A stretch of DNA of 63,973 nt, counting the filler, from Craspedostauros australis (lineage: Eukaryota): assembly GCA_030167865.1 (NCBI GenBank). It is 16 parts of 16 records of this genome, joined end to end, with 100 filler letters (N's around TTAATTAATTAA, not from the genome) between each part and the next. Parts side by side here need not be neighbours in the genome. Positions count along the whole stretch, not along the records: positions 29,021 to 38,411 come from JALAGF010005018.1; 15 more parts are not named here. One strand, 5' to 3'. Position 1 is the first letter of the stretch; the number at the start of each line of letters is the position of its first letter. The position numbers and the translations under genes were made by a program. Below the pieces are notes generated by a model that ran no database searches, was not told where the DNA came from, and saw only the letters and a list, made by a program, of their open reading frames with translations. Below are positions 9,962-59,529 of the stretch, piece after piece.

Positions 9962-11176
9962 TCATGGGATCAGGTCGATGTATTCTTCGAATGTGAGCTT
10001 GTGCGATTGGTACCGCGCAGACTGCTGATTGCCATTCATGGTGCAATGAATGTTGGCGAGGAACGCAGCAACAAAATGAATGAGTGTGAGAGGATTCAGC
10101 AGGGTTTTGTTGGCGTTGCGAACGCTGACGAGGGGAAAATTCTTCGTGATCTCCTTGAATGCCCATTCAACACAGATGCGTCCCGACGACATGTCCTTGT
10201 TGCACTGTGCCTCAGAGGACCCTGGAACAGTGTCCTTGTATGCAGCGAATATGTATGGTGTAGTAGGATATGCTGGATCGCCGTAGAGACGATATGGAGG
10301 ATTGTTCTCATCCAATGGCATGAGATCCTCCAATCGCTGTTCGATTTGGCTTTGCTCGAACATGTACCCGTCACCACGAGCACCCGCAATCGGCCCAAAG
10401 TAGTGAATGAGCAACCCATCTGGCGCAACGATGCCTTGATAGTGCAACCCATGACCGCGTTTATAGCCTGAGTAGAGGTCCTCTTGATTCTCCTTGGGAC
10501 GACGGGTTTCCCAGAACGTGCCGTCGACATAAGCAATCACATCGTCCACCAAGCCATGGGTGAGACGGTGATTGTTCTCCGCATAGTCGGGGAATCGATC
10601 ATGAAACAAGCCAATGTCGCTCAGGTACGGTTTGCCAATGTCATAGAAGTAGGAGTAGAAAGTGGAGGCAATGCTGGAAATACGGACGCTGTCCATGCTG
10701 AATCTCTGTTCCATGTCAAACAGTCGTCCGCGATGTGCCAGACGGAACAGCATGACAAGCAATCCCATTTCGTAGGATACCTTGTATCGATTCCGCACTT
10801 GAATGCATGCAGGATCTGCCTCACTGGACACCGCCTGGAACTTTGGCCAGAGACGGTCAGCCAGACGTTGAAGATCACGCACACGGAAACGAAAGTGACG
10901 AACACTTTCGCGCTCGTCCAGTTCTGCGATGGCAATGTTCCTGTTGGTGAACATGGGAGGAGGTCCCAATGGAACAAGGTAGATTTGCTGCATTTGTAGC
11001 ACATGACGGCCCAATGCGACGATGTTGCTATAGTGCTGAACCAGAATCACAACGCCTGCATAATCCAGACGTTGGACGTCGATGTCTGCAAGTTGAGTGA
11101 TGGCAGCCTCAAATCGAGTGATTGCTTCTTGCAATGCCTGCCGCTCGGGAACAGTATTCCAATTAGGATTGACCAT
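9962..11176 (-). mobile_element. PIF/Harbinger DDE transposase (HARBI1-like, DDE_Tnp_4), ~404 aa, apparently intact
   Basis: FRF and LFRLAH (HTH), IAYVDGT (D), YSGYKRGHG, GPIAGARGD, LYGDPAYP (D), NKDMSSGRICVEWAFKE (E). Likely ATG at 11176; an upstream in-frame ATG lies at 11275. Confidence 0.9.
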
Positions 11177-12219
11177 AACAACGATAGTTAGCAGTAATCG
11201 AACGCGTAGAGGAGCTGTGTGTGCGAAAGTGCGATGAACACAGACTAATTCAAGGAGCAGCGAGTATCCCTTCATGACCTAGGGGATTACTTCGATCCAA
11301 TATAAATTTCATTCTCACCCCATTCCGTTTTTGACCGCAACTTTTACATGTACCCCTCCACTTTTCTTGTACCAACGGAATCCTTGGGAGTTGGCGCTTC
11401 TNNNNNNNNNNNNNNNNNNNNNNNNNNNNNNNNNNNNNNNNNNNNNNNNNNNCCTCCGAAGTACTCGTGAATCGTTTTTTCGGCGACGGGACTGATGGGA
11501 AAACTCATCAGCGAGGCCATCATCGCTGATTTTCGCGACACATCAATGATTTTTTCGGTGCTCACATCGCTCAACTCGATCGCCGTTTTCACATGCATCA
11601 CTTGGCATGCGTGTTCATACAGCTCCATGAATACCTGCCAACACATTGCTTCGCTGATGATCTCTGTGGCTCATCGCTCATGGATCATTCTTCGTTGCAC
11701 GCAATCTCTTTGATTGTTTCTTCGCACCGTCGAAGAGATCATCGCGATTGGTGATCACAAAATCGCAATCGCAATTCCAACCATTCCACATCATCGATCG
11801 CCCATCACAACACAAGCACAGCCAATCGCATGCACCCGTGGCCATGCCTGCATCATCTCCGGCTTCTCCCACATCCAAGCGTGCCAAAGTATCCAAGCCT
11901 TCTTCCAATGGCGCGGCAAGCTACAATTGCGCCAAACCCTTCGTGGTATTCCTCAACAGCAATCGGAAAAAAATCCCTTCATGCTACCAATGGAGTGACG
12001 GGAGACCGTTCCGCAGGAGCACCAACTGCAAGCAGCAAGGGAGTATGCAATGGCAACAGTGCCTGCATCAGCGTTGCTGGTACCACCACTGCCAGCAGCA
12101 CTGCAAGCATACTCGAAAGCAACAGGCGCAGCAGTCGTATTATCGAGCGCCTCAAACGCAAACTTGCATTGAGGTGCGGAAGAAAAAACAAGAGGAGTGG
12201 CCCGATTGCAACCAACAAC

Positions 12220-25655: not shown

Positions 25656-26858
25656 ATGTTCAAGATCAAGGCATCTATTATCGGCGCTCTCGTCTTTGCC
25701 AGCATGGCAATGACACTGGCTTTGGATCCAGCTGAAGATTCGGTGTTCGCTCCGCAAAGATCGTTGAATGAGGATGCACCGCCGTCGTCGATGCCATCAG
25801 AGGAGCCGACCGAGACCCCTGTTCCACCTTCCATGCTCGTCGGCTGCCTCCGAACGCCAGGAGATGTCAACAGCAAGTTCCACAAAAGAAGGCGTCCGTC
25901 CAGAGTTGTTTGCGACGAGGTCGATGGTCCGTGCGCTGACTTTGTGGCGCGCATCGAGGCACTCCCAAACAACAAGGACAGGCTCGTTAAGAGCATCTTC
26001 GCATGCAACGCACAAAACCGGGCAAACACGCAAGGCATCTCTCAGACACGCTTCGACCGTGTGAAGAATGATAAGGACGCGATCGACACCATCTTGAATG
26101 CTGCTGTCCAAAGCGGCAGGATCATCATGACTGGACGAGGCGACGCACTCACCGCAGCATGCAGAAACAAAGGATACTCATGCTGTCCACCCGAAGGTTG
26201 CTCATCCAATAGTGAACCGTTCACCATCACCTCAGATTCCTGCACAGAAATTGGCTCTTGCACCAACGTCGCTCCCGCAGCCATGATCTTCAATAGCTGC
26301 ACTGGGGAGAACTCCTGCAGAAACTTTGGACAGTTCCGCACACGTGGCCCGGATGGTAACGCTGTCATCGGTAGCAAGATTATTGGACCACATGCATGCA
26401 CCGATACTTCCAGCTGCCAGAATCTTGGAAGGAACATCTTGGGTTCTATCCGACTTACATACCTGGCATGCAGAGGGTTGCGCAGCTGCATGAATCTCGG
26501 ACGTCGTTCCAACCAGGGAAGGTCTGTGCCCTTGCCCGTCATCGCCGACATCAGCATCGGACACAGCGCATGTAGAGGAGAAAATGCATGCAAGAATGCC
26601 CACAGAGGTGATTCCAAGAATCTTGGAAGCCTTTTTATTGAGGATTATGCGTGCACGGGGGACAATAGCTGCAATGGTGTCGCTAACAGTGACGATGCCA
26701 TTCATGACCTTGTCATTGCTCCAACTAGTTGCTTTGGGAACAACAAATGCCAAAACTGTGTCAACACGAATATGTGCCCCGGATCCCCCAACTCTACCTA
26801 CATCATCGGTGATCCAAGTGAGGACTGCCCAACGCCAAACTCAGATGCATGTTCTTGA
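25656..26858 (+). CDS. Secreted cysteine-repeat protein, 400 aa
   Basis: Signal peptide, RSL motif, PS/PT linker, then about seven (S/A)C.G..(S/A)C.N repeats, several preceded by IG. Confidence 0.8.
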   Translation: MFKIKASIIGALVFASMAMTLALDPAEDSVFAPQRSLNEDAPPSSMPSEEPTETPVPPSMLVGCLRTPGDVNSKFHKRRRPSRVVCDEVDGPCADFVARIEALPNNKDRLVKSIFACNAQNRANTQGISQTRFDRVKNDKDAIDTILNAAVQSGRIIMTGRGDALTAACRNKGYSCCPPEGCSSNSEPFTITSDSCTEIGSCTNVAPAAMIFNSCTGENSCRNFGQFRTRGPDGNAVIGSKIIGPHACTDTSSCQNLGRNILGSIRLTYLACRGLRSCMNLGRRSNQGRSVPLPVIADISIGHSACRGENACKNAHRGDSKNLGSLFIEDYACTGDNSCNGVANSDDAIHDLVIAPTSCFGNNKCQNCVNTNMCPGSPNSTYIIGDPSEDCPTPNSDACS

Positions 26859-29800
26859 GGTGTTCACAGTTAAGGCGTGTGCAGGAAGAGACGTCCAGCA
26901 ACGGCTCAAAAAGAACACCATCTCGAATGCTCAGTCATTGAGAGGATAGTGCTCTGATGGTTGATCACCCTGCTTGAGCTTGATGGTCTCCCTGATCATG
27001 CTCATCGCACACTCGCTATTGATGAATGGATTGATAACCGAAACGAGTGGATGGTACGGATGGCACATGGAGGTGCTACTTGCGTGTCTATCACCATCAC
27101 CATCACCACCACCTGCCTCGGAAGGTCTCTATTCTTCGACCAGAGCATAGCAAGCACCTCGCAAACGTACCACACGTACATACATACCATAACAACACTA
27201 ATTACTTGGCTACACCAGAGTATGCGACACTAGTTTTACATGCATCCTTTCGTTGTTGACCTTCAACTATTTGTGCGATGGAGTGTTTGTGTGTGTCTAT
27301 CGGAATGTGAAGTAGAGGGCGAAGTAGAGGGCGAAGTAGAGAGCAAAGTATGAAGACTCATGAATACGCACGAGCTGCTCTTGAAGTGGATCCTTCCGCC
27401 CCAACTTATTCCGAAAATGAGAGAATCATGCCAAGAGAGAAGGAAGGCAAGGCAGCAATGAATGTGAGTGAGCGAGCGCCAGAGGACGAGAACCACCATG
27501 TGGAGTGTGCAGGGTTTGCCTTAGGTACCGAGCCCAATCTCGATTGGTTGACGTTTTGACGTGGCTGGCTAGTTTCCGTTTTTTGGCGCTTGTTGGTAAT
27601 TATTGGTAACCATTGGCGTATCGCCGACGGCACAAGCTGCCATTCGATGAGTTGATGACCGTTGCCTGACATCTTGACATCATTAGAAAGAGGAGAGTGA
27701 GAGCTCTCTATTGATGTGCTCATTGTAGGGAAACGGTCTCCGCTTCATGTTCATCTTGATGCCTGTTTTAACCCTTTATCGGCCTTTTTCATACGGACGA
27801 CGTACGGACACGAATCCGGATTTTTTTTCTTTGGTAACCATCGGCAGCCGCGCAGAGTCTACGGCATTCTGGTACAGAAATTTGTTGCTTTTTCGTCCGA
27901 TCTCGACCGACAACCTTCCAAAGACCCGCATCCAATTCTGTTTCATCTATTGTTCAAGTGAATGGCATGGCTGTATTCGTCGCTTCATTCTGCTTCAGGT
28001 GGTGTGCTGGTCAGTACTCCAGAATGTTTGTGTGTGTTGCCTTGTGTGTTTGAATTCAGTCACTAATGCTCGTGACAGCCATGATCATCAATTCGTCAAC
28101 AAACAAGAGTTCGCGCCAAAAATTATCGTGTGGTTTTGCGTGTTGTCGATTCTGACTGTACTCTTCACCTGAGTCTGGCTACTTTATGCGAGGTTGTGCA
28201 TCGGCCTGACGTCGGATCATTGTGCTGTTGCTTTCAATCGACACAGTATCCTCTCCTGCACCTGACCATGTAGTCCTAGTCTTCGAATCTCACTTCCTCC
28301 AAAGATATACCAACTGCAAGCTCTTTTCGTCGCTTTACCATGTGCTATGCTTGCGAGGAAGCACTGCTTCCTGATCATGCGCCACAAGTGTCTTCATTGA
28401 CGCCGGTTGCGACACCCTTTCAAAGACTAGCCACTTATCTCACGCTCACGCTCATGCGATGGGTGGGGTCGTTGACACAGTCACTGTTCGTGCTCCATCA
28501 AACCACGTTCGAACCGTTCTGTGGAGGAAGCCTGATGTTCTCTCCTGATCTTCAGTACCGCTAAGGCCAATAATAGAACACTTGCCTCTACATTTCGCAT
28601 GCGATACATTCTAAAATGCGCGCACATTGCATGGAAATTATGCGCAGCGCAGTTGCACATGCTCAGCAACGTGAACGATCCAATGAAAAGTGGTCAGAGC
28701 ATGGCGAGATTGAACTCCTCGGTGTGAAACAGTCCACTCTGCTCTATTCTGGACTGCTCTTGTGTGCCAATGCTCCCCAAGGGATCATTGCTCCTCCAAA
28801 CAGGATGGACGCAATGATATACATGAATCCATGTTGCTGTTGCCAAGATGATTGCTGCTATGCGGTATTCTGGAGTAGAACTGAAACGCTATTGCAGAAC
28901 TTATAAATCATATCATCAACNNNNNNNNNNNNNNNNNNNNNNNNNNNNNNNNNNNNNNNNNNNNTTAATTAATTAANNNNNNNNNNNNNNNNNNNNNNNN
29001 NNNNNNNNNNNNNNNNNNNNATGTCCGATCACCACCGACCGTACTGCCTGTCCTCGCTCCTGTTCGTACTCCAGGTCCTGGTCCGCCTCCTTCTGTCCAG
29101 GGGCGCCACATCCAGCCCAGCCGTCCGTCTGTGATAAAGGGGCGCCAATCATCTCATCTTTGGTCGACCCTGACACATCGCTGCGGATCTTGGGTGAAAC
29201 ATGCTCATCACGCAACTCCCATCCTTCGCATGCCACCAGATATCCCTGTTGCTGCACTGCGGCCGGAACCAAAGCCACCACCACCACATTGGCTCAAAGC
29301 AGACACACTGACCAAATCGCTCAGCAGATCCGTATTCATGNNNNNNNNNNNNNNNNNNNNNNNNNNNNNNNNNNNNNNNNNNNNNNNNNNTACTGTCCGG
29401 ACGATCCACAACCAGCTGAGCCTACTACCCATGCTGAAAGAAGCACACGTGAGTTGCCCTGTGTCTGGATTACACCCTCACGTGCCCATTGACAAGTGAG
29501 GTTATAAAGGGGCGTATTGGAGCCACGACCGCACGAACCGGAGACATGGAGCTACGATCGCATGAATCGGAAGCACAAAAGATACGACGACCACACAGCA
29601 GCGATCAAGACGCAACAGCAAAGAGAAACGAGAAGGCAAACATCGAAATACGTGCACGAACGCTGATGGAACAGAACAAAGCGAAACACAACAAAAGTAG
29701 CGAGGTATGCCTCATAATTCCCTACACAACACAGTTAGCACACACACTGATCATCCACAGTCGTTACCATCAGCCCAGATTCCAATACGGAAAACTTGTT

Positions 29801-30187
29801 GTTTTTGGATCGCTCCGCAAAGAGAGAGACCAGTCCTCCTTATTCTTTCCCTTCTTTCTTTCTCGCGTTCATGTTGTCGCACATCACATCAGACACAAGA
29901 CAACATCAACATCGACAACGAAGAAGTGCCGTGCTTGCCCCTGTCGTGGCTATGCAAACACGAGGCGCATGCGACCAAGGAGTCATTTCCTGGAAGGGAA
30001 TCGAGGACAAAGAGCGGAACGACTGACCACACCAATCCAAAGCAATCCAGAACAACACCTGCTACAATCTTCAATCGTGTAACAATCTGTCTCATACTCC
30101 TGCATATGGTGATATAATACGTTATATTCTATGATTCTATATTCTATTATTCTATGCTATAATATTACCAAATACCAATAGTTGCTG

Positions 30188-31828
30188 ATGACGAACCTGA
30201 TCGGCTTCATGGAAGGTGGTGCCACCGTGCACCCAAGACAACTCAGCAGGCGTGACCACCCGCACAGGTGGGACGGCTATGAGGACGACGACGATGACAA
30301 CAATGACGGCATCCCATCACTCACCGCTCGCCTCTTCGGCTTCCACTCCCCCACATCCCAGGCAAATGGTGTCTACCTTTTTGTCAAGAAGTTCTCATCA
30401 CAACGCATAGCCAGCAACTTCACAGCGCAACGCCACATCGTCCGCTTCATCGAGATGCAATGCATGCAACATCCCGAAGACTTGGCGTGGCAGGACAGAT
30501 GTGGAAACACGGCCTTGCACCTCCTCGCACAGTCCGCACGCATGGATCGCATCATGGGGCTTGCCAAGATCCGTTTCCTCGTGAGCATCGCCAAGATGAT
30601 CGTCGACGCCGATCCGGAGTTGCTGTTACGACAGAACAAATGGAACGAGACACCGCTGTTTCAGTTCGTCGCTCATTGCGGCCTTCCCTCGAACTTGGAC
30701 GCCACAGCGACGTTCGACGAATCCCACTCTCACCAACTTGTGAAGCTCTTGCGCGTGCTGCGTCAGAGAGGCGCTCACAAGATTCGCAACTCTCTACAAC
30801 GTTCTCCATTGCAGGAAGCCATCCGGTTGGTGGCGGTGAAGGATTCGGGCCACGCCCTCTTGTGTACGGCTGCACTGGCCTCCTCGTCGGCGACCGACTG
30901 GAATACGCCTCACCGCGTCGACACATTCAGCGAATGCGTGCAAGCCCATTATCACGCAGTTATTCGCACGCTCATCTTTGCTGCGAGGTCGATGTGCTTT
31001 GAACTAGGACTCTGCAAAGAAACACCGGTGAGCTCTGCGCTGGTCTCGGACGCATGCAACCTGTCGACCTTTCGATACTTGCTTGAATCGCAAGACCTCC
31101 CCACAGGTAACGAGCGACGGCAGCAGTTGGATTGCTTCCGTCACAGCCAGAGCGAGTACTGCGCTCGACTCGGTGGACGCATCAACTGGATGAACACCAC
31201 CACGACTGTGGAAGAGCGGCGGCAAGTCTTGCAAATCCACTACGATCTTTCGGTGTCGTTTCGCGCTTTCTGGGCCAAGTTGAAAGCAGTCATCCGATTC
31301 TACCACAGCCAAGACGATTTCCTTCACGGATTGGTCAAGGTTGGCGCACCATCAAGCTTGCTGATCGCGGCCCTCTTGCTGCAAGATGATGTACCCAGCA
31401 CTCAAGCATCGACTGCGCCAAGGTCGAAGCACACGCTGCTGACGTTCTTCCTGTTCCTTCGCGGCATCTCCAGCAGTGCAGCGTATCCGAGCAATGAATC
31501 ATGTGACATCATCCGACTCATGTTACGGCTGCGCAAGGACAGCAAAAGTTTGGCGCAGATCCCAAACCCGCAAGGACGATATCCACTGGTCGCGGCTCTC
31601 GTGGATTGCTGCGATCTGGGATGGGCCAGCGGAATCAAGAATATCTTTGACGCGTATCGAGCGGCAACGAGCCATGTCGATCCCGTCACGCGTCTGCATC
31701 CGTTCCAACTGGCAGCGCTGTACACTGACCCGGAATCATTCGATCAGCCAACCCAACTCTCGGCCAGCTATGAACTGCTGCGTGCAGATCCATCCGTGTT
31801 GGTGCATTGCATCCAGAATGCAATGTAG
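30188..31828 (+). CDS. Degenerate ankyrin-repeat-like protein (diatom-type)
   Basis: QDRCGNTALHLL, QNKWNETPL, GRYPL; C-terminal DPVTRLHPFQLAA...SYELLRADP. First in-frame ATG at 30188. Confidence 0.75.
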   Translation: MTNLIGFMEGGATVHPRQLSRRDHPHRWDGYEDDDDDNNDGIPSLTARLFGFHSPTSQANGVYLFVKKFSSQRIASNFTAQRHIVRFIEMQCMQHPEDLAWQDRCGNTALHLLAQSARMDRIMGLAKIRFLVSIAKMIVDADPELLLRQNKWNETPLFQFVAHCGLPSNLDATATFDESHSHQLVKLLRVLRQRGAHKIRNSLQRSPLQEAIRLVAVKDSGHALLCTAALASSSATDWNTPHRVDTFSECVQAHYHAVIRTLIFAARSMCFELGLCKETPVSSALVSDACNLSTFRYLLESQDLPTGNERRQQLDCFRHSQSEYCARLGGRINWMNTTTTVEERRQVLQIHYDLSVSFRAFWAKLKAVIRFYHSQDDFLHGLVKVGAPSSLLIAALLLQDDVPSTQASTAPRSKHTLLTFFLFLRGISSSAAYPSNESCDIIRLMLRLRKDSKSLAQIPNPQGRYPLVAALVDCCDLGWASGIKNIFDAYRAATSHVDPVTRLHPFQLAALYTDPESFDQPTQLSASYELLRADPSVLVHCIQNAM

Positions 31829-32154
31829 TGCAGTGTGCACTCGTGTGATACGAGTCCAATGGACCGCAGCAAATACGCACCCAATTTACGAAGAGCACAT
31901 CAAATCAATTCATTTCTTTACATACTACACTCATTTCCGTCGATGATATACTTTCATATTCTGCTCGCCCATGCTGAACCATGTGATGCCTTCATACAGA
32001 GTACAGCAGTGCCATGTGCTCTGGTGTGTGTTCCCTGCCATCGCACCATCCTCGTCAACGACTTTCGTCGTGGTGTGCACCATACGCTATGCGCTGTGGC
32101 AGAGTATTGGAGTAGTAGTAGTGTCAAGAGGAGTCGATTAATTCCGTGTCCGCA

Positions 32155-34791
32155 TTATTCCCCCAGCACACGCGATAGCCATCCCGCATCTGGTGTTGGC
32201 AATCGGGTGATGTCGTCCGCATCCTCCGACTTCCAATGCTTGCCTGCCATCGCCAGCAGCCAATCGGAGCGATTCCTTGGCGGGTATTCCTGCGTATAGT
32301 CTTGCATCAAGCTCTTCACATTGTCCTTCTGGATGTCCGCCACGTAAACCGTCGCCGCCAAACGCATTTGCTGGGTCGATCGATAATCCGCCGCCGCCGT
32401 CGCGTGGTGAGCATTATCTCCCATCATGGTAGCGATATTGTATCTGTATCGGAATTTACCAACCCGACTCGTATTGGCAGCATTTCGTAGGAGCAATTCC
32501 GGTTGCGTGCCGTTGGCCAAAATCAACGGAATGATGATGTTGAAGGCCCGGGACCCAGTCTTGTGCACGTCGTAATGCATGAACCCGCGAATGCAATGGG
32601 AAACGCCGATGAATGTTATTTGGTAGGCAGCAAGGCCATCCATGCCGAAGTAAGTGCCGATCGCATTGAGGATATCGTCAAACCCGCCCGCGCTCAGTGC
32701 TGTGAGGTAGTCCTGGTGCGATTCCTCATTCAAGGGACTCACCCAGTGCATGTTGGACATCCATTTCTTTCCTGGCCGTTGGATGTACCAGTCCTGCCCT
32801 CGTATCTGGAGTTTGTTCTCGTCGTCGGTATGCACGGCATTGCCTTGGATGGTGGCATTGCGGAGGCGTTCCGCGATTCCCATGTACTCGCAGTACTTCA
32901 GCAGCACTTGCCGCAATCTGTGAGGGACTCCGAGAAGATAGGCATTCGACATCACAGTGTGGTTGATACCGCCGTCGCTGCTGGATGCGCCGCCACCTTT
33001 CCAATAGATGTTGGACAGCTCGCCAGGTTTCAAATCCGGCTGGACGAAGTCACCCATGGAGTTCAAATCATCGTTGGTTTGGTCTTGCCATGAGGCAGGG
33101 ATGAGCTGCCGCGGCAGTGCCATGGGGTACCGAAACTTCCCTTCTTCGTACTCATCCAGTGTGTACGACTGGTCGGTAAGCACCACCTTCTCGGCGGGTA
33201 CCCAGTCGACTTTCACGGAGGCCCCCGGGATGGGACATTTCTTGAAGATCATGTAATTGGCGGCTGCGTAGAGGCGGACGGCGAAGAAGATCTTGCCGTC
33301 CCTCCATTTGCGGTCAAGAACGCCACATGGACGCAAGCAATCGTCGTTGATTTCCATCCAGCTGCGATTGTTCGCGGTATTATTTGCATTCGAGTCTGCA
33401 TGCCGGTAGTAGCAGGCCGTCGACATGGATTGTGCATACGGCTCCTTTTCTTGTTCTTGCAACGTCCGAATGATCCGTGTCCCGTGAATGTGATGACTGT
33501 GGGTGGCGTTGCCGTGTTGAAGCAACTGTTTGCGATATGCACTCGCAGTTGTGTAGTTGTAATCGTCATCCTCCGGCGCCCAATGGCTGGCATATGCCTT
33601 CCAAGCAGCGTCCCAAGCAGCACCGTAGTTGAGCATGATCTCTTCTCCAATGCCAATGTCCTTGGTGGCGATGATTTCCACAAGCAGCTGTCTACCGCGT
33701 TTCGTTGTGCGCATTGCATGGGACAATGATCCGTTGAGAGCATTCGCAGTAGTAGTTTGAAGTAAGAATGGCGACGACGACGACGATGTCACTTCTGACC
33801 ATCTGAGGGCCGCATTCGCCTCGTTGCCTCCATGGTTGATGAAGCTCACGCCAGGACCGGTCGGAAGCAACAGCGCATCCAATCCAACCATCTCGAAGCA
33901 GTAATTGAGCAAGAGTTGCTCATCGATGACCTTATCGGTGTTGTACTGAATCCTTGCTTTCTTGTGATCGACCGCTTGATCCATGATCAGCGTTTGCTCT
34001 CTGTCGATGATCACCACAGGAGATGTCGTGACGCGTTGGCCCTCGACGAATCGTCGTTTGGCGAATGCGCCTCGTCCAATTTTGGGAATCGTCGAGTCCT
34101 TCACATGGATTCCATCCACGCAGGTGCCATGATCTTGCAACCATCGCAATGACATTTCATGGATCGTGTCTGTGGGAGACGATCCAGCACGCTCCATGTG
34201 ACACTCCAGAAAGAGCTCGGATCCTGCGGACAGCGCTTGCGTGGAACGAAATTGGAAGTTGTCGTTGACGCCAAACGCCCCGTTGGACGGATCCCTCGAT
34301 CGATGCACCCCGGTGCTTCCGCTGCCTTCGGCTTGAATTCCTCGAACGTTGGCAGCATCTTGCGAACACAGGACGGTGCCTCCCATGCCTGTGACAAAGT
34401 GGGACGATCGGAACCAGCTGTGCAAGCTCAACGCGTCGTTGTTATTCGTCGTGTCCCACAAAACATCGCGCAACGGTCGTGTCAACAAGTCTGCGTTCAT
34501 GTCGATGACCGAGATCACCTGCTCCGGCGCGCCGATCTGCTGTCCTTCCTGCAACGCGATGCCGGTGTACAAGTTCAGCTTGCTTGGAACTCTCTGCGAC
34601 GGCGCTAGCCAGAGTTCGCACGGATCATCGTGACTCCCACCGCCGCTGCCACCGCCGCTGCCGGTATCGTCATTGCTGATATCTCCATTTGGAAACGGGA
34701 TGGCAGACACCAACGTGCTGACCGAAGCCGTCGAAAGCACAAGCCAGAGGAAGACTGTGCAGCTATGTCGCGACGATGCGCCGAACGTCAT
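32155..34791 (-). CDS. Secreted SET-domain protein with a C-terminal 2OG-Fe(II) oxygenase-like domain, 878 aa
   Basis: Signal peptide; degenerate first SET-like unit (CELWLAPS...AGSELF); SET motifs STIPKIGRGAFA, FINH and ATKDI..GEEIMLNYG; C-terminal HYD...HHAT...RLAATVY. Confidence 0.8.
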   Translation of the reverse strand: MTFGASSRHSCTVFLWLVLSTASVSTLVSAIPFPNGDISNDDTGSGGGSGGGSHDDPCELWLAPSQRVPSKLNLYTGIALQEGQQIGAPEQVISVIDMNADLLTRPLRDVLWDTTNNNDALSLHSWFRSSHFVTGMGGTVLCSQDAANVRGIQAEGSGSTGVHRSRDPSNGAFGVNDNFQFRSTQALSAGSELFLECHMERAGSSPTDTIHEMSLRWLQDHGTCVDGIHVKDSTIPKIGRGAFAKRRFVEGQRVTTSPVVIIDREQTLIMDQAVDHKKARIQYNTDKVIDEQLLLNYCFEMVGLDALLLPTGPGVSFINHGGNEANAALRWSEVTSSSSSPFLLQTTTANALNGSLSHAMRTTKRGRQLLVEIIATKDIGIGEEIMLNYGAAWDAAWKAYASHWAPEDDDYNYTTASAYRKQLLQHGNATHSHHIHGTRIIRTLQEQEKEPYAQSMSTACYYRHADSNANNTANNRSWMEINDDCLRPCGVLDRKWRDGKIFFAVRLYAAANYMIFKKCPIPGASVKVDWVPAEKVVLTDQSYTLDEYEEGKFRYPMALPRQLIPASWQDQTNDDLNSMGDFVQPDLKPGELSNIYWKGGGASSSDGGINHTVMSNAYLLGVPHRLRQVLLKYCEYMGIAERLRNATIQGNAVHTDDENKLQIRGQDWYIQRPGKKWMSNMHWVSPLNEESHQDYLTALSAGGFDDILNAIGTYFGMDGLAAYQITFIGVSHCIRGFMHYDVHKTGSRAFNIIIPLILANGTQPELLLRNAANTSRVGKFRYRYNIATMMGDNAHHATAAADYRSTQQMRLAATVYVADIQKDNVKSLMQDYTQEYPPRNRSDWLLAMAGKHWKSEDADDITRLPTPDAGWLSRVLGE

Positions 34792-35159
34792 CTTTCATCC
34801 ATCTCCACAGCCGATCTCCGCTTGTTAGATCGCAATGGATGAAGTCTGGAGTGGCGCGTGTTTCTGTCTGCGAAAGACGCCAACAAATCGCACCATCCGC
34901 GTTCATCGCAACACGGGACTAAATGGAAATATGAGAGGAAATCAGTCCCGTCTTATGGTCGGCGAATCTTCGAGGAAGAGTCGCGGTGGCGCGAGCCACA
35001 GCGCGAGGGTGGAGAGATACTGCTACACTCTACTCTACGAATACTCGTATTAGTATGGCCCATGCATGCTCCACAGAGTAATGCTCTATTTTATCCTTGG
35101 AGCATCGTATTGTGACGCATTGCGCCTTATTGTAAATATTGAATCGAACCGGAGGAGCT

Positions 35160-36467
35160 CTATTCCCACCAAGCAGCAGGCTCGCTCTCCCTTTCGAACA
35201 TGGCAGTCCGGACCACTTCAAGCAACGCGGGGCGATCCATGTCTGACTCCAAGTGCACGCCCTTGCACTCATCCAAGCATCCGTACAGCTCCACCAGCGA
35301 CATGTTCTCATACTTGTCGCAGTCGGCGTCGTCGCTACTTGCCTTGTTGTCTTTGGCGTTGTGAGCGACATGAATGCCCTTCATCAAATCGGCGCATCCA
35401 GCCAGCTGGTCGAAGTGCGGATTGCCGATCAACGCGTTCGCGTCCTTCGCTGCCATCTGGATAGCCATCTCCTTCAGAATTCTGCATTTGTGTTCATCTG
35501 CAAAGAGCAGCAGCTCAATCAGCGTGTCTGGCGACAGATGCTTATCGACCAGCTTGGCTTCGACGATCACCTTGAGTTGCCAGCAATGGAAATGGGTTGC
35601 GACAATCAGCAGCTGCTGCAAGTCTTCTGGTCTGGCCATGTCATCTGCATCGAGGCATGATGTCTCGCCGGAGTAGATGTACTGCAGCGTGTATCGAACG
35701 TGCGCGGGATAGAAGTCCGGGAGAAGAATGGTGCCTTCGTTGGTGCTCCGATCGATCATCGCCTTGGTCGATGGCACCGTGATCAACAGAATGCCGCTGT
35801 ACGCCTTGATTGCCTCCTGTTGGATATCACGGCCGACGAGGAAGGTGAGATCGGCCATGCTGCTGTTCTGCAGAGCATGCAGTTTCTGTTGCCCGATGCT
35901 GTGGTGGCCCAACTTGAGCATTTCTGCCGTCGCATCGTCTGTTTTCGCGTGGTTTGGATCTGCTTCTTGGGAGCAAGATGACAAGTACTCTGTGCAAGGA
36001 TTAGAGTCCGTAAGTTTGGCAACCTGCAATGGTGTTTGGTTGTCGTTATTGCAGACTGTGATGTCTGCTTTGCCCAATTCCACCAGATACTTGACAATGT
36101 GAAGCTGACGGTGTGTGGCAGCACAGTGGAGTGGCGTGTATCCCATACTATCTTTGGCATTGACGTCTGCACCACATGATTCCACCAGACACTTGATCGC
36201 ATCCATGTTTCTCATCTTGATTGCGTAGATGAGTGTCGTGTTACCATCATTGTTTTTGATATCGACGGTTGCATGGCACGTTTGTACCAAGTACTTCATG
36301 ACGTCCAAGTTCCCTCTTCCACACGCGATGTGAAGCAGGGGAGATTCATCGGGGACCATGATCATGTCGACATGTATGCCAGGCTCCGATTGCCACCATT
36401 CCCTGATGGTGGCAACACTCCCTCGCCTTACAGCGATGATCAGCTGTTCAGGAGTGATGCTCGACAT
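35160..36467 (-). CDS. Ankyrin-repeat + BTB/POZ protein
   Basis: Four or five ankyrin repeats (LLHIACGRGNLDVMKYLV, GYTPLHCAA). BTB core ADLTFLVG...LQYIYSG...LKVIVE; BACK-like LLLFADEHKCRILKE. Likely ATG at 36467. Confidence 0.88.
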   Translation of the reverse strand: MSSITPEQLIIAVRRGSVATIREWWQSEPGIHVDMIMVPDESPLLHIACGRGNLDVMKYLVQTCHATVDIKNNDGNTTLIYAIKMRNMDAIKCLVESCGADVNAKDSMGYTPLHCAATHRQLHIVKYLVELGKADITVCNNDNQTPLQVAKLTDSNPCTEYLSSCSQEADPNHAKTDDATAEMLKLGHHSIGQQKLHALQNSSMADLTFLVGRDIQQEAIKAYSGILLITVPSTKAMIDRSTNEGTILLPDFYPAHVRYTLQYIYSGETSCLDADDMARPEDLQQLLIVATHFHCWQLKVIVEAKLVDKHLSPDTLIELLLFADEHKCRILKEMAIQMAAKDANALIGNPHFDQLAGCADLMKGIHVAHNAKDNKASSDDADCDKYENMSLVELYGCLDECKGVHLESDMDRPALLEVVRTAMFERESEPAAWWE

Positions 36468-36678
36468 GATTGCGTGGTTGTTTGTTGACTGCTCTGGCCA
36501 ATCGCTTTGTGTTGAATATGTCCTTGTTATAGTTCTATGTCGCCTTTTCTTCGAGCACGGTGCTGTGCTATCCTCTTCTGTACGACCTGCACGCACCGAC
36601 ACTGTGCTATAGCACAGTGTCGGTACGATCGTACGATCCTGCCGATTTTTTATCGGATAACATTACTTTATTAGCACA

Positions 36679-36819
36679 CGGTGTAGCGTCTTGTTGCATA
36701 GGCTTAGATATATTTAGCTAGCTTCTACGACATAAATACCTGGCTGACTTGTCCTCGTCTTGGACGAAAATGATGACGTCATTGACGGTCAATGTCAGAC
36801 TGCAATGGTATCGAACGGT
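36679..36819 (+). repeat. Dispersed ~140-bp element, probable transposon end (inverted copy at 41980-42119)
   Basis: Collinear with the reverse complement of 41980-42119, e.g. TTAGA.ATATTTAGCTAGC.TCTACGACA.AAATAC and ATGACGTCATTGACGGTC.ATG.CAGAC. Confidence 0.85.
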
Positions 36820-38511
36820 GTGGCTGGCGATGTTTTGGCAGATTCGGCGCCGCGTTGATTCCTCGCGTCGTTTTGGATTTGGCTTGGTGAGGGGTTGCCT
36901 CCTTTGTTCGTGTTGTGTCATGGAGCACGGCGATGGTGGTGGCATCCCTACACGTCCACTTCCACGTCCACGACAATAGCAACACTTGCGAATACTACAC
37001 AACATAATAATATATATTGTAATACAATATGGTGGAATGGAGCACAGTGACTTCTCNNNNNNNNNNNNNNNNNNNNNNNNNNNNNNNNNNNNNNNNNNNN
37101 NNNNNNAACACTTGCGAATACTACACAACATAATAATATATATTGTAATACAATATGGTGGAATGGAGCACAGTGACTTCTCCTTTGGTCCGCAAAATAG
37201 AATTTGATTTAACACTTGTTATAGCATTGTTTGTAAAAACAAAGTCCTGCGAAACCTGCTTTGCTTCCCATGGACATGAGACAACATGGTCATCTACTGA
37301 GCTGTTGGCATGGNNNNNNNNNNNNNNNNNNNNNNNNNNNNNNNNNNNNNNNNNNNNNNNNNNNNNNNNNNNNGAGTGCGTGCAGGTTCATTGACACCGA
37401 AACAAAAAGCCAAGAGGAGAACAGATGAACAACAGACAGAAGCCAATGCTGGCTGTTGGCGACAACTAGCAGAGAGGAGGTCCAAACACGTGGGCAGGGA
37501 ATCGACCTGAAGTGAGGACAAGGCCGTACTATCCGTTCATGACCTAGACAATATAATACATCGTTTCTTGTTTTCAGTTTCATTTTTTTTCATTTTTGAC
37601 AACAACATCTGTGAACAATACCACTTTCTTTACATCTTTCGAAAGCTGTTGAGCACAGCTTTCCAATAAATATGTTTAAGTTTAATATTTCTTACTGCCA
37701 TCTTATTGCTAATCAAGCCTGAAGTACTTGTGACTTAGTTCTGCACCATGGGACTGAAGTGAAACTGTTCAGCAAGGCTCAAACTGTGAGGCTGGCAACG
37801 TCAAATCCGCTTTTCCACATCACACTTGCTGAAACTGCTGTTGTACTTCGCTTTCAGCGATTCCTTGCTTTCCTTTTCCAAGGTTGTCATCTCCTCTCGT
37901 GTCCTTTATGTCTTCATCACTTCCTTCCTTCAAGCATGCATGGGCGTGGCAACATCATCACTTGTGGTGTTCATCTTCATTTTGTCTTGGCTTTGCGACA
38001 TCGCACCTTCCGCAAACTCAAACAATCATGGAGCTCACAATTTTATCGCACTCACAAAAATCATCATACTCGCACGATCACTGCACCCAAACTACCATGG
38101 TGCCATCTCCAAAACACACACCCAAGCCACCACTGCACCCTCAATCTTCCAGCCCCCACAAGGAAGCAACAGCAACGCCTAAATTGCATCCTGCTTCCAA
38201 TCCTCCACAATTCCAAGCAGAGAGCATGCTTGCATATGACATTGGTCACTCATCCATTGTATTCATCCACAAGTCTCTCATGTCTCCAACGAACAATGAC
38301 AGCAAAAATCAAACAGCACATCTGCCGCCAATGCCCACCTACTGTGATTTCTTGGAGAGTGGTCCACCCAACAGCCCCACCAATCCATGGGGTAGTGTCA
38401 ACAGGGATGTGNNNNNNNNNNNNNNNNNNNNNNNNNNNNNNNNNNNNNNNNNNNNTTAATTAATTAANNNNNNNNNNNNNNNNNNNNNNNNNNNNNNNNN
38501 NNNNNNNNNNN

Positions 38512-49831: not shown

Positions 49832-49931
49832 NNNNNNNNNNNNNNNNNNNNNNNNNNNNNNNNNNNNNNNNNNNNTTAATTAATTAANNNNNNNNNNNNN
49901 NNNNNNNNNNNNNNNNNNNNNNNNNNNNNNN

Positions 49932-52035
49932 TCCGTTGAGCATGGAGCGGATCTTGGTGTAGAGGTACGCGAACTTGCGTTCTACTCTGCCGTTCTGTTG
50001 CGGCGTGTTTGATGCCGTGAACTCGAATTTCATGTTGAGTCCTGCATCGATGAGAATATCCTGCGTGGACTTGTTCTCTCCGCTGTTATCACCTCGGAAG
50101 ATGATCTGTTGATCACCAGTCTGTGACTTGATCGTTTGAACGAACCGTTTGATGTATCCTGGTTGATCACTTTTGTTCTTGAGAAAGAAACTCCAGNNNN
50201 NNNNNNNNNNNNNNNNNNNNNNNNNNNNNNNNNNNNNNNNNNNNNNGAAGCTTATGTGTTTAGTGTAACTAATGTCAATGAAGAGCCGTTCGCCGCGGCG
50301 AGTTGCTCTTGGAATGGTTGCCTTCGGAATATTCTTCACTCTTGCGTTCGCGACCGCGCAGTCGCGACATACCGGCGTCTCGCCGATGATCTTCCATCCG
50401 TATTGAGCGGCCGTCCGCTTCATGGCTTTGAGTGGCGCGTGGCCGAGCATTCGGTGCAGGTTCACCGCGCTGATCTCCTTGGATGGATTCTTGACGATGG
50501 CTGTGCAAGCCNNNNNNNNNNNNNNNNNNNNNNNNNNNNNNNNNNNNNNNNNNNNNNNNNNNNNNNNNNNNNNNNNNNNNNNNNNNNNNNNNNNNNNNNN
50601 NNNNNNNNNNNNNNNNNNNNNNNNNNNNNNNNNNNNNNNNNNNNNNNNNNNNNNNNNNNNNNNNNNNNNNNNNNNNNNNNNNNNNNNNNNNNNCTTGGGT
50701 GTGTACTTCACATCATCGAGCCGGATGACGTGGCCAGTGTTGTCTCGCTGTTTGACCTTCAAGCGAATGGATCCCATCTTGGGAGAGTCCAGCTTCGTGC
50801 TGTCTCCCACTTGGACGAAGGACTTGATGTGCCGCACGTTGAAGAGAGCGGCGTCCGAGTTGACGAGGTGACACGAAGCTCCGCTGTCAGCAAGCCAGGT
50901 GTCCTTGTTGACCTTGTCCTTGTATCTGGTGCTTAGCTCGTGGAGTTGCTCCACAGCTGCCGCAGCTATCTCGTCGTCGAAGCTGCCGTCATCGTCGTCT
51001 TCGTGAATTCCATCTTCGTTGTATGGATGATGATGGTCTCCGTCATCCATGTCGTCGGGTAGTTGCACGTAGTCCGATGCAATTGTGCTGTTTCGATGTG
51101 ATCCTGTGGCTGGATCGTACGGGTGGACGCGTGGTCGTTCGCGTAAGAGTACGCGCATACATCCTCCAAGGATGTAATGAAGATCCGTCTCTGGGATCGT
51201 CTCTGTCTCNGCTGCTTCCAGTATGCGATTGATCACAACCGAATTGGCGAGAATCTCTTCGATCGATCTGAAGTTCTCGGATAGGATCGATCCCATCATG
51301 TTCACCCATATCGGTCTCAGCACTCCTTGTGCGACTCCTGGGAACAGTTTCACCCCTGCTTCCATCACAGCATCGAAGATGAGTTGCTTCTGGATTACCA
51401 ATGCTGTTTCCGTTCCATACGGAATGGTGTCATGACGATGAAGGTAGTTTGATTCATTGGGATTCCCAATCGGTGGGAAGTCGATGTCTCTTGGATAGAC
51501 GACACGCTCGTTTGGATTGAAGCTGTCGTCCGGATGATCCTCGGTTTCGTCGCTGTCATCTTCGTCGAAGATACCCGATCTGTTGTTCCCCGCCGCTGGG
51601 GGAGGCGGTGCTGCGCCGCCGTTCGTCTCGTCTCGGCCTCTATCATTGTCGTTGATCTCGTCGTCGGCCTCGTTGCCCATCTCGGCTCCGTCGCCGTATG
51701 GACCGATCAGGTCGTGCGCGTTGAAGCAGCATTCGTAGCTCACTTCGCGTCTTGGATCCACCTCGTGGATGATTGGCTCCTCGCTGAGCCACTCCGGGAT
51801 GATCTCATCATCCTGCACTTCGTCGTCACTCCTGACGTACTCGAAGTTATCGAAGAAGGAGTCTTCGATGTAGTCGTTGGACACCAACATGCAGAGCGGC
51901 ATGTCTTTTGCTGAGAGTACCATCTCGTGCCCGCTCTTGTCGTGTCCTTGTGTTGCTGTGTTGGCCTGTTCGTTGGCCTTCTTGTTCTCGTTGAACTTCT
52001 TCTTTCGGCACTCCGCCTCGCGGTGTCCGAAGATG
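49932..52035 (-). mobile_element. Ty1/copia gag-pol fragment: zinc knuckle end, long spacer domain, protease, integrase
   Basis: GHREAEC, WLADSGASCH, LHRMLGH...CRDC, RLFIDIS, RGDNSGEN, TPQQNGRVER. Confidence 0.92.
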
Positions 52036-55292: not shown

Positions 55293-57965
55293 NTGCCTTC
55301 GGGATGTTCTTCACTCTTGCGTTCGCGACCGCGCAGTCGCGACATACCGGCATCTCGCCGATAATCTTCCATCCATATTGAGCGGCCGTCCGCTTCATGG
55401 TCTCGAGTGGCGTGTGGCCGAGCATTCGATGCAGGTTCACTGCGCTGATCTCCTTGGATGGATTCTTGACGATGGTTGTGCAAACTTTGTCGTCGTCAGT
55501 TGGCATGATGGGATGCATCTGCACTCCCGTGATGAATCCGTTGGATGTAGGGAAGACTCGATCGAACACGATCTTCGTTCCGNNNNNNNNNNNNNNNNNN
55601 NNNNNNNNNNNNNNNNNNNNNNNNNNNNNNNNNNNNNNNNNNNNNNNNNNNNNNNNNNNNNNNNNNNNNNNNNNNNNNNNNNNNNNNNNNNNNNNNNNNN
55701 GCGAATGGATCCCATCTTGGGAGAGTCCAGTTTCGTGCTGTCTCCCACTTGGACGAAGGACTTGATGTGCCGCACGTTGAAGAGGGCGGCGTCTGAATTG
55801 ACGATGTGACACGAAGCTCCGCTGTTGGCGAGCCAGGTGTCCTTGTTGACCTTGTCCTTGTACTTGGTGCTCAGTTCGTGGAGTTGCTTCACAGCTGCCG
55901 CAGCTATCTCGTCGTCGAAGCTGCCGTCGTCGTCGTCTTCGTGAACTCCATCTTCGTTGTATGGAGGATGATGATCTNNNNNNNNNNNNNNNNNNNNNNN
56001 NNNNNNNNNNNNNNNNNNNNNNNNNNNNNNNNNNNNNGATCCTGTGGCTGGATCGTATGGGTGGACGCGTGATCGCTCGCGTAAGAGCACGCGCATGCAT
56101 CCTCCAAGGATGTAATGCAGATCCGTCTCTGGGATCGTTTCCGAGTCGTTCGCTTCCAGTATGCGATTGATGATGATCGCATTGACGAGGATCTCTTCGA
56201 TTGATTCGAAGTGCTCGGATAGGATGGATCCCATCANNNNNNNNNNNNNNNNNNNNNNNNNNNNNNNNNNNNNNNNNNNNNNNNNNNNNNNNNNNNNNNN
56301 NNNNNNNNNNNNNNNNNNNNNNNNNNNNNNNNNNNNNNNNNNNNNNNNNNNNNNNNNNNNNNNNNNNNNNNNNCTCGTGTTGTTCCTGGGAACATTCGCA
56401 TCCCCGCTTCCATTACGGCGTCAAAGATGAGCTGCTTTTGGATTATCAATGCTGTTGTTGTTGCATTCGGGATGGTGATGTGACGGAGGAGGTAATCGAC
56501 ACTGTTGGGATCCTCAATAGGTGGGAAGTCGATGTTCCCTGGGTAGACGACACGCTCGTTTGGGTTGAAGCTGTCGTTTGGATGATTGCCGTCCTCGGAT
56601 TCGTNNNNNNNNNNNNNNNNNNNNNNNNNNNNNNNNNNNNNNNNNNNNNNNNNNNNNNNNNNNNNNNNNNNNNNNNNNNNNNNNNNNNNNNNNNNNNNNN
56701 NNNNNNNNNNNNNNNNNNNNNNNNNNNNNNNNNNNNNNNNNNNNNNNNNNNNNNNNNNNNNNNNNNNNNNNNNNNCCATCTCAGCTTCGTCGCCGTATGA
56801 ACCGATCAGGTCGTGCGCGTTGAAGCAGCATTCGTAGCTCACTTCGCGTCTTGGATCCACATCGTGGATGATTGGCTCCTCATTGAGCCACTCCGGGACG
56901 ATCTCATCGTCCTGCACTTCGTCGTCACTTCCGACGCATGCGAAGTTATCGAAGAAGGAGTCTTCGATGTAGTCGTCGGACACCAACATGCAGAGCGGCA
57001 TGTCTTTCGCAGAGAGTACCATCTNNNNNNNNNNNNNNNNNNNNNNNNNNNNNNNNNNNNNNNNNNNNNNNNNNGTCGTGTCCTTGTGTTGCTGTGTTGG
57101 CCTGTTCGTCGGCCTTCTTCTTCTCGTTGAACTTCTTCTTTCGGCACTCCGCCTCGCGGTGTCCGAAGATGCCGCAGTAGTTGCACTTGCCCTTGAAGCC
57201 GCTTCCCTTGTTGCGCTTTCCGTTCATCTTGTTATTGTTTTTCTTGTTGTTCGATTTCTTGCGTTCTGGGCAATCGGCGGATCTATGGCCATACACGCCA
57301 CAGTTGTGACAAGTNCCCTTGAAGTTACCGGTGCTTGTGAAGCCGGTGTCGTTGCTCTTCGTGTTACTGTCTTGGAAGTCGTCGACGTATGCTTTGCCTC
57401 CTTTGTGCGTGGCGTATGCAGTACGGAGTACTCCTCTGATTGTGTTGATGGTGACCAGTTCCGGATTGAACGTGAGTTGATGTTGGAAGTTCACGATGTG
57501 AGTTCTGTACTCGTTACTCACCGTGCTGAGGATTTGCATGATCATTTCCTCGTCCGAGATCTCATACTTGACATCGTGGAGACGCGATCGTAGACTCTCG
57601 AGTTGNNNNNNNNNNNNNNNNNNNNNNNNNNNNNNNNNNNNNNNNNNNNNNNNNNNNNNNNNNNNNNNNNNNNNNNNNNNNNNNNNNNNNNNNNNNNNNN
57701 NNNNNNNNNNNNNNNNNNNNNNNNNNNNNNNNNNNNNNNNNNNNNNNNNNNNNNCGGAGATGCATTGGTTGATGTACTGGATGGCCTGCTTGCCCTTTCC
57801 TTTCTCTGCATCCATCATGAGGATCAGATCGCTGAAGCAGTCGCATCCCAGCTCGTACATCTCCTCCATCGCTTCCTTGTTTTCATCGGCGGCTGCCGCG
57901 ATCTCGCTCACTGTTGGTACCTTGGTCTTGCCCAACATCACGTCTCTCGTCTTCTGTGCACGAGC
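55293..57965 (-). mobile_element. Second copy of the same Ty1/copia family (gag with two CCHC knuckles, spacer domain, protease, pre-integrase)
   Basis: CHNCGVYGHRSADC and CNYCGIFGHREAEC; close paralogue of 49932-52035; the protease motif reads LANSGAS. Confidence 0.9.
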
Positions 57966-59529
57966 NNNNNNNNNNNNNNNNNNNNNNNNNNNNNNNNNNN
58001 NNNNNNNNNTTAATTAATTAANNNNNNNNNNNNNNNNNNNNNNNNNNNNNNNNNNNNNNNNNNNNGGGAACGGTTGGTTTCCCAGAGAGGTCGTGGTCGT
58101 CGTCTTCGCTGTCCTCTTCTGACTTTTTGCTCTTCTTGGGCATGGGTGTGCCCATGTCGAAGATGCTGTCGTTGAAGAAGGATTGGTCCGTCCGGGTTCT
58201 TGTGTCGCCAGCGGAACGGCTGCGCTCGAGCCCGGGACGGCTTGGGGTCGTGGTGGCTGTCGCCGCTGCTTGGGCAGTGGCTATAGCCGCGTTTGCTGCT
58301 TCTGCAGCGGCTTCGNNNNNNNNNNNNNNNNNNNNNNNNNNNNNNNNNNNNNNNNNNNNNNNNNNNNNNNNNNNNNNNNNNNNNNNNNNNNNNNNNNNNN
58401 NNNNNNNNNNNNNNNNNNNNNNNNNNNNNNNNNNNNNNNNNNNNNNNNNNNNNNNNNNNNNNNNNNNNNNNNNNNNNNNNNNNNNNNNNNNNNNNNNNNN
58501 NNNNNNNNNNNNNNNNNNNNNNNNNNNNNNNNNNNNNNNGTGCGGTTATTGCTTGCTTTGGCAGAGGCTACTGAAGTTCGACCTTGGGTCGCTTACCTTC
58601 AGCTTGGGACTTTTGTCCTCTTGCGTGGCTCGGTTTTCGAGCGGTGGGGATCTGATTTCAGATCAGATGCATTCGATGAGGACGTGGTCCTTGTTGGAAG
58701 CTCGGTCTGCGAGCTGTGCCTTTTGGCTTCGTCTCAGAGAGACTCTTGCGATCGGTTGGCAGAGGAAGATGCTCGGTGGAGTTGNNNNNNNNNNNNNNNN
58801 NNNNNNNNNNNNNNNNNNNNNNNNNNNNNNNNNNNNNNNNNNNCGAATCGGTGGAGAATGCCTCGTGAATCTGCCGGCTTCGGGATAGCCGTGTGATGCA
58901 GTTCAAGAGAGGTGTGCTGTTTGAAGAGTTATAACTTGTAACGATGAGAAGTAGAGTGCTTTGTAGCTAATCCTTGTCTGTTATTATGAGTTAGCTTATT
59001 GGTGTTAGTAGGGTGAAGAAACGATGCCACACAACTAGGCGAGACCCTGCACTGATGCACTTGATTCAGTGCAACAGAGTAGACAGTCAATACAGTGCCT
59101 TGCTCTCCGCACATGTAGTTACACTGCAGTGTAGGTCATGACAATCAGTGATGACGGTCATGAAGCAGTGGCTGTGGCTGANNNNNNNNNNNNNNNNNNN
59201 NNNNNNNNNNNNNNNNNNNNNNNNNNNNNNNTCGGATTCCATTGCTTGAGTTGAAGCAAGTTGGATACGCATGCTGAGACCACGGTGGTAGTGTGATGGT
59301 CATCAGCAATGAAGGAATCGAGGTATGTTTTAGTAAGGAGGATCTGAAGAGCATATAGTTCCCAGGTGGGGTGTGAGTCAGGTCGGTCGGGTTTGAGTCA
59401 TGACGGATTCGTGAATGGAGGAGAGAAAGGAGGAGAAAAGATTTGGTGGTCAATCAAGTCGGAAGATTTCGCGCCAAAACAGGAATTTCTCCCATTGGGT
59501 TGATACCGTGTTCGGTAGTAGTCTGTCCC

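Follow-up and report, generated by a model that had tools for sequence, protein, structure and literature searches.

The silaffins of the diatom cell wall contain dimethyl-lysine as well as epsilon-N,N,N-trimethyl-delta-hydroxylysine, as set out in a 2012 review (PMC3820600; this and the other papers cited herein were available in part). Diatom-specific SET proteins have been linked to the formation of this wall (PMC11151724; PMC11554505; bioRxiv 10.1101/2020.11.23.393678), with the evidence in the accessible sections coming from comparative transcriptomics and from co-expression with cell-wall genes, and both wall proteins and polyamines have been proposed as their targets (PMC11151724; PMC11554505). 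In Seminavis, 24 diatom-specific SET methyltransferases are described as co-expressed at the time of cytokinesis (bioRxiv 10.1101/2020.11.23.393678). Herein we describe a gene from the diatom Craspedostauros australis (GenBank assembly GCA_030167865.1) whose product combines a signal-peptide-like N-terminus, a degenerate and a motif-complete SET unit, and a C-terminal domain with the predicted fold of an Fe(II)/2-oxoglutarate (2OG) oxygenase. The gene lies on the minus strand of a stretch of 63,973 nucleotides, referred to here as the window, in which 16 parts of 16 records of this genome are joined end to end with 100 filler letters between each part and the next; the part that holds the gene (positions 29,021 to 38,411) comes from JALAGF010005018.1. 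A sequence-only reading of this DNA had proposed a secreted SET methyltransferase fused to an oxygenase-like domain, as a candidate writer of methyl-hydroxylysine in cell-wall proteins. The background on which that proposal drew, namely the tie between diatom SET proteins and the wall and the presence of methylated lysines and trimethyl-delta-hydroxylysine in silaffins, is upheld by the sources above.

In terms of function, the closest analogy to what we propose for this protein would be the collagen lysyl hydroxylases (PLOD/LH). These multi-domain Fe(II)/2OG oxygenases reside in the lumen of the endoplasmic reticulum (ER), where they hydroxylate C5 of peptidyl lysine, and their chain holds another lysine-modifying activity besides; in their case the partner activity is glycosyl transfer, in contrast to the methylation proposed here. 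Neither PLOD nor JMJD6, which are both peptidyl-lysine 5-hydroxylases, gave a sequence match, and neither is found among the fold matches listed. TMLH, the mitochondrial 2OG oxygenase that acts on free N6-trimethyl-lysine at C3 in carnitine biosynthesis, illustrates that hydroxylation is chemically feasible on a methylated lysine, but its substrate is a free amino acid, and it gave no sequence match and no structural match among those listed.

On the methyltransferase side, the nearest described proteins are the BacSET proteins, reportedly the diatom-specific SET methyltransferases that Nemoto et al. described in 2020 in Mar Biotechnol 22:551, and known to us through citing papers. The SET half of the C. 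australis protein appears to belong with BacSET, beside which we place it by description: its SET domain lies behind a signal-peptide-like N-terminus, its named relatives are all from diatoms, and BacSET is linked to the wall by co-expression in the available parts of the citing papers. It differs in that SET is here one of four modules, and an oxygenase domain goes unmentioned in those partial accounts of BacSET. A search of the literature, outside which most subscription journals lay, returned no diatom lysine hydroxylase, no SET-oxygenase fusion and no description of the oxygenase domain presented here.

The gene is a single open reading frame (ORF) that starts at the first ATG past a stop codon, with no in-frame ATG upstream, and shows no sign of introns within its 878 codons. 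From N- to C-terminus, its product comprises a signal-peptide-like segment, a pseudo-SET unit, a complete SET domain, a middle domain, and a C-terminal domain of approximately 300 amino acids. Its extent is exactly that given by the sequence-only reading, every motif noted there was found at its position, and the fold and motif claims made for a SET and oxygenase-like fusion are confirmed. When the window was scanned in six frames with profile hidden Markov models (HMMs) of the SET, pseudo-SET, middle and C-terminal domains, significant matches were obtained only in this ORF; two further matches, with domain E-values of 39 and 130, fall inside it as well. The features of the gene are as follows.

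32155..34791, minus strand: whole gene, a single ORF of 878 amino acids plus stop codon (32155-32157)
34702..34791, minus strand: signal-peptide-like N-terminus, residues 1-30, from inspection of the translation, with likely cleavage after VSA30
34159..34623, minus strand: degenerate (pseudo-)SET unit, residues 57-211, from the HMM envelope and hhalign
33586..34125, minus strand: motif-complete SET domain, residues 223-402, from Pfam, motifs and Foldseek
33109..33582, minus strand: middle domain, residues 404-561, conserved in the 15- and 32-sequence alignments
32188..33069, minus strand: predicted Fe(II)/2OG oxygenase-fold domain, residues 575-868, from the AlphaFold2 model and Foldseek, with no Pfam model
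32569..32577, minus strand: H739-Y-D741, proposed first and second iron ligands (HxD), with H in 165/189 and D in 173/191 domain copies
32404..32406, minus strand: H796, proposed distal iron ligand, with H in 153/175 copies
32362..32364, minus strand: R810, proposed binder of the 2OG C5-carboxylate, with R in 152/174 copies

The C-terminal domain had been read as an oxygenase from the order of a few motifs, a reading that calls for a double-stranded beta-helix like that of 2OG oxygenases. Residues 528-878 were modelled with AlphaFold2 from a 35-sequence alignment. The model has a mean predicted local distance difference test score (pLDDT) of 87.2 and a predicted template-modelling score (pTM) of 0.85, and contains this fold as a jelly roll of eight consecutive strands. 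In 2OG oxygenases, strands 2, 7 and 8 are the canonical seats of the iron triad and of the basic residue that binds 2OG. According to the secondary-structure string of the model, the HxD motif lies in strand 2, H796 opens strand 7 and R810 opens strand 8, an arrangement in which H739, D741 and H796 would bind iron and R810 would bind 2-oxoglutarate. A full-length model from a 32-sequence alignment (pLDDT 83.4, pTM 0.80) matched PHD2-type oxygenases together with solved SET domains when searched with Foldseek.

Searches of structure libraries with Foldseek agree with this assignment. With a threshold of E<=1e-3, the PDB yielded at least 428 matches. The 30 that are listed are Fe(II)/2OG oxygenases without exception, including OkaE (2.4e-7), AsqJ, TlxIJ, SnoN, AndA, PHD2, the Pseudomonas putida prolyl hydroxylase P4H, and the halogenase domain of CurA. 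Of these, the PhyH-type enzymes OkaE, AsqJ, AndA, SnoN and TlxIJ, along with PHD2 and P. putida P4H, have the same jelly roll at a Foldseek probability of 1.00 and E-values from 2e-7 to 1e-5, and the PhyH-, P4H- and PHD-type oxygenases share with our domain an HxD motif, a distal histidine and a basic residue in that order on strands 2, 7 and 8. In contrast to them, the domain has a long helical N-terminal extension and the conserved motifs SNMHW, IIPL, GPEL and GDxAxHAT, which are particular to its family. The library of predicted viral structures, BFVD, gave 50 listed matches, 38 of which are named; 35 of the 38, from cyanophages and giant viruses, are annotated as 2OG oxygenases, as hydroxylases (prolyl or other), as phytanoyl-CoA dioxygenases or as JmjC proteins, and the other three as 'Uncharacterized protein'. 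Independently, a protein-language-model search placed '2OG-Fe(II) oxygenase' and HalD/2OG-FeII_Oxy_3 clusters at the top with scores of 0.93-0.94, which on the calibration of that search is a lead rather than proof; few features are shared (115-143 of 256). As modelled, the C-terminal domain is a member of the 2OG oxygenase fold superfamily that falls in no described sequence family, including 2OG-FeII_Oxy, 2OG-FeII_Oxy_3, PhyH, TauD, JmjC and others. One of the solved fold neighbours, TlxIJ, is listed as a heterodimeric oxygenase.

The residues concerned are HYD at 739-741 (32577-32569), HH at 795-796 (32409-32404) and RLAATVY at 810-816 (32364-32344), with R810 positioned 14 residues after H796. 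Taken by itself the bare HxD...H...R pattern is weak evidence, as shuffling the last 310 residues 5000 times produces it on 1596 occasions; the motif stands above chance because conservation and fold support it. We assessed conservation in 205 domain copies from 161 proteins, with the denominator for each residue being the copies that cover its column. H739, D741, H796 and R810 rank 31st, 15th, 29th and 30th of 275 columns, and of the 164 copies in which no column of the four is missing, 138 have the complete H-D-H-R set, so that the HxD motif, distal histidine and arginine on which the sequence-only reading relied are conserved in homologues. Of the 26 incomplete copies, 22 sit in multi-copy proteins, 20 of which keep at least one intact copy, and among proteins with more than one fully covered copy all but one retain an intact H-D-H-R copy. 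Degenerate copies usually lose the four residues jointly, with combinations such as WSSM, RSTM and ICDN in their place, which is expected if the four form one catalytic site. This pattern is that expected of an active enzyme alongside pseudo-enzyme copies.

Many relatives carry two to four oxygenase-domain copies in tandem (P0017, P0016, P0002, P0018, P0019 and others), only some of which read H-D-H-R; the four copies of P0017, for instance, read QYHR, HDHR, HDHV and YDQV. From their sequences, these arrays seem to pair active copies with pseudo-enzyme ones. Halogenases of the 2OG superfamily have HxG/A instead of HxD; the family keeps HxD, and a halogenase was rejected.

In the methyltransferase half of the protein, PF00856 matches residues 239-390 with an E-value of 2.3e-8 and 34.8 bits against a cutoff of 22.4, and is the sole Pfam match of the protein. 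GxG, NH and ExxxY are the catalytic and SAM-binding (S-adenosylmethionine-binding) motifs of SET domains, and the unit called motif-complete by the sequence-only reading contains GRGAFA at 239-244, NH at 319-320 and EIMLNYG at 384-390. Across 15 sequences, N296, H320, E384, Y389 and G390 show no variation, with N319 at least 90% conserved, and the catalytic NH and tyrosine are invariant or almost so in alignments of 15 and of 32 homologues. Foldseek searches with the full-length model returned vSET (3kma, target-normalised TM 0.79), the SET domain of MLL1, Schizosaccharomyces pombe Set7 and PFL0690c. Residues 223-402 are, by fold and by family membership, a SET domain, and judging from its residues the module is probably a catalytically active protein-lysine N-methyltransferase.

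The upstream unit, previously noted as degenerate, is a genuine SET relative: in a profile-profile alignment with hhalign, residues ~57-211 align to the true SET region over 132 columns with 89.4% probability and an E-value of 2e-6. It has CS in place of NH and a cysteine in place of the catalytic tyrosine. Between the complete SET domain and the oxygenase fold lies the middle domain, which mixes helix and strand, conserves the motifs PYP and CLRPC, and has cysteines at 460, 485, 489 and 519. It has no Pfam match, and in the protein-language-model search its sole look-alike was a diatom 'hypothetical' cluster at 0.81.

The N-terminus consists of a short basic n-region, MTFGASSRHS, an 18-residue hydrophobic core, TVFLWLVLSTASVSTLV, and VSA before IP, and its hydropathy peaks at 2.0 in the best 11-residue window. 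On inspection it looks secretory, as had been claimed, and not nuclear, cytosolic or plastid. Residues 31-56, which follow the likely cut, are acidic and glycine-rich, unlike a plastid transit peptide. Diatom plastid presequences have an aromatic residue after the cleavage site; with isoleucine at this position and an acidic stretch next, plastid targeting was rejected. There are 10 NxS/T sequons in the protein, and several of its cysteines are conserved. From its N-terminus, it is probably a soluble protein of the secretory pathway, located in the lumen of the ER or Golgi. Taking the models and motifs together, we consider it very likely that the gene encodes a signal-peptide protein that combines SET with an intact 2OG oxygenase fold.

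An exhaustive search for relatives of the C-terminal domain identified 507 representative proteins with a threshold of E<=1e-3, and 372 when it was set at E<=1e-10. The descriptive names attached to relatives are all 'hypothetical', 'expressed unknown' or 'SET domain'. The whole architecture is common to full-length homologues, of which the first search returned 14, with precomputed SET annotation for 13; the best named full-length homologue is a Staurosira transcript with 47% identity. Organism names are attached to a minority of relatives, and this named set of four organisms, Staurosira, Seminavis robusta, Fragilaria crotonensis and Cyclostephanos tholiformis, consists of diatoms only, both pennate and centric. 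No relative was found when 185,579 genomes of bacteria and archaea were scanned with patterns, once built from the single protein and once from a 9-sequence alignment; such scans need near-exact short peptides and are of low sensitivity.

The C-terminal domain is combined with SET in approximately 62 of the 161 proteins. Among those that have it without SET, 70 contain one copy, 22 two, one three and one four, and a hydrophobic segment is present at the start of 45 of the 88 stand-alone relatives that begin with Met. In a FastTree phylogeny of 138 C-terminal domain copies, fused and stand-alone states cluster, with 12 changes compared to a mean of 26.8 and a minimum of 22 in 200 shuffles; the count of states left out 42 unlabelled rows, and related sequences share labels. 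The tree supports no more than inheritance of the architecture, together with several switches or gene models that are fragmentary.

We propose that the two halves act on a common substrate. The SET module would use S-adenosylmethionine as methyl donor to methylate lysines of lysine-rich, silaffin-type wall proteins in transit through the lumen, and the oxygenase module, with Fe(II), 2-oxoglutarate and O2, would hydroxylate the same lysine side chain; the position would be C5 should the known trimethyl-delta-hydroxylysine be what is made. The active SET module would be preceded by its dead duplicate. Lysine hydroxylation of cell-wall proteins by such an enzyme is plausible, and to the full reading, a luminal SET-methyltransferase/oxygenase enzyme that processes lysines of cell-wall proteins, we give somewhat less than an even chance. 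A bolder version, which we regard as possible but doubtful, would have the family make the trimethyl-hydroxylysine of silaffins, with the C-terminal domain as a new, diatom-restricted clade of peptidyl-(methyl)lysine oxygenases, one luminal enzyme writing the whole composite mark through physical coupling of oxygenase and methyltransferase, and the dead SET unit and the dead oxygenase copies of relatives reading or clamping clusters of modified lysines.

Several observations weigh against lysine processing in the lumen. The likeness of the C-terminal domain to known oxygenases is at fold level only, with target-normalised TM scores of 0.35-0.56 to PDB entries and identities of about 9-14%. The domain has no Pfam match at E<=10 in this protein or at E<=1 in 35 members, and searches of PDB sequences with phmmer and with a profile (hmmsearch) gave only chance-level matches to it, besides weak matches to SET. 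An hhalign comparison with Escherichia coli YbiX gave 0.7% probability, which is uninformative as the template was a single sequence. The domain stands alone, without SET, in 94 of 161 proteins, so its substrate need not be tied to methylation. A C-terminal ER-retention signal is absent, with the protein ending in ...RVLGE, and the proposal would require SAM to reach the ER or Golgi lumen in diatoms. Finally, the protein hydroxylases among the structural matches listed are prolyl hydroxylases (PHD2, P4H and P3H1), with no lysyl hydroxylase.

This last point leads to the alternative that survives best, in which the oxygenase is a prolyl hydroxylase responsible for hydroxyproline or dihydroxyproline of wall proteins and the SET module methylates lysines of the same substrates independently. 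The target-normalised TM scores of 0.54-0.56 for PHD2 and the P4H-annotated viral proteins matched in BFVD point in this direction, as does the occurrence of dihydroxyproline in diatom walls, reported in older literature. However, neither of the P4H families PF13640 and PF03171 is matched by sequence, and the PhyH-type small-molecule oxygenases score as well or better, such that fold neighbours are uninformative on substrate; as modelled, they do not tell lysine apart from proline, methyl groups or small molecules. For a protein already joined to an enzyme directed at lysine, it would also be more economical if both modules target lysine. We therefore regard a prolyl hydroxylase as unlikely, though deserving of some weight.

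The same PhyH-type neighbours, OkaE, AsqJ, AndA, SnoN and TlxIJ, are the best PDB matches, and all are small-molecule oxygenases. They would suit an oxygenase that acts on a free molecule, such as (trimethyl)lysine, ornithine or a polyamine precursor, rather than on protein. The language-model clusters carry the Pfam family HalD, which acts on free amino acids, and the frequent occurrence of the C-terminal domain on its own is in keeping with this possibility. The structural resemblance is nevertheless at the level of fold, the language-model leads share few features, and both the signal peptide and the joining of the domain to a protein methyltransferase speak for a luminal protein as substrate, making a free small molecule rather improbable as the target.

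2OG oxygenases can also demethylate through hydroxylation of N-methyl groups. A third alternative is that N-methyl groups are what the oxygenase oxidises, so as to demethylate or edit methyl-lysine or the N-methylated long-chain polyamines, forming a writer-eraser pair with SET. It would accommodate the JmjC-annotated phage protein among the viral fold matches listed and the proposal, in the available parts of two papers, that polyamines are also targets of diatom SET proteins (PMC11151724; PMC11554505). Against this, JmjC demethylases are absent from the top PDB matches listed, and a writer fused to its own eraser is uncommon. The arginine on strand 8 for 2OG is in the style of PhyH and P4H and not of JmjC, and overall we consider an eraser improbable. 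That the C-terminal domain is a non-catalytic binding or scaffold module keeping only the fold is very improbable: 26 of the 164 copies lack the full H-D-H-R set and the N-terminal SET unit of the same protein is already a pseudo-enzyme, but the copy studied here has all four residues, which are among the best-conserved 11% of columns, and an intact copy is retained in nearly every multi-copy protein, as described above.

The surroundings of the gene were also annotated. Just upstream of it, on the same strand, is a gene for a 435-amino-acid protein with ankyrin repeats and a BTB domain (35160-36467, minus strand; Ank_2 E 3.5e-25, BTB E 2.6e-6, Pfam). Ankyrin-repeat proteins termed dAnks are listed among the functionally characterised biosilicification genes, and ankyrin genes are reported to be up after silicon resupply, in the accessible text of PMC11151724. 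On the other side, a 546-amino-acid ORF (30188-31828, plus strand) runs towards the SET gene's 3' end, and the two stop codons are ~330 base pairs apart; this ORF matches no Pfam family at E<=0.001. Elsewhere in the window we identified two mobile-element remnants, of which one is a DDE_Tnp_4 transposase-like ORF (9962-11275, minus strand, E 1.9e-18) while the other contains a retroelement Pol beta-barrel domain (49884-51923, minus strand, E 3.6e-9). Also present are ORFs for a trypsin-like serine protease (954-2021, minus strand, E 4.5e-41), a 1295-amino-acid protein with an AAA_16 ATPase domain (4419-8306, minus strand, E 5.8e-21) and a DUF7640 protein (25656-26858, plus strand, E 4.5e-8). 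The G+C content of the window reaches its minimum of 0.371 at 56001-58000, as compared with ~0.53-0.55 near the SET gene, and this stretch has a strong AT skew of -0.298.

The chemistry of the lysines in silaffins, methylated and hydroxylated, has long been known (PMC3820600, 2012, from the part available), and no enzyme for the hydroxylation step was found in the literature searched. With a lysine methyltransferase and an intact-looking oxygenase placed behind a signal peptide, the luminal lysine-processing enzyme proposed here offers a concrete candidate in the form of one clonable gene, with a bearing on diatom silica patterning and on the production of authentic modified silaffin peptides for biomimetic materials. 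The C-terminal domain represents a large family, with 507 representative clusters at E<=1e-3 and no Pfam model, for which annotation as a 2OG oxygenase fold would be useful across diatom genomes. The architecture newly combines enzymes of two kinds that were each known before, and through it an old question of diatom biomineralisation becomes directly testable.

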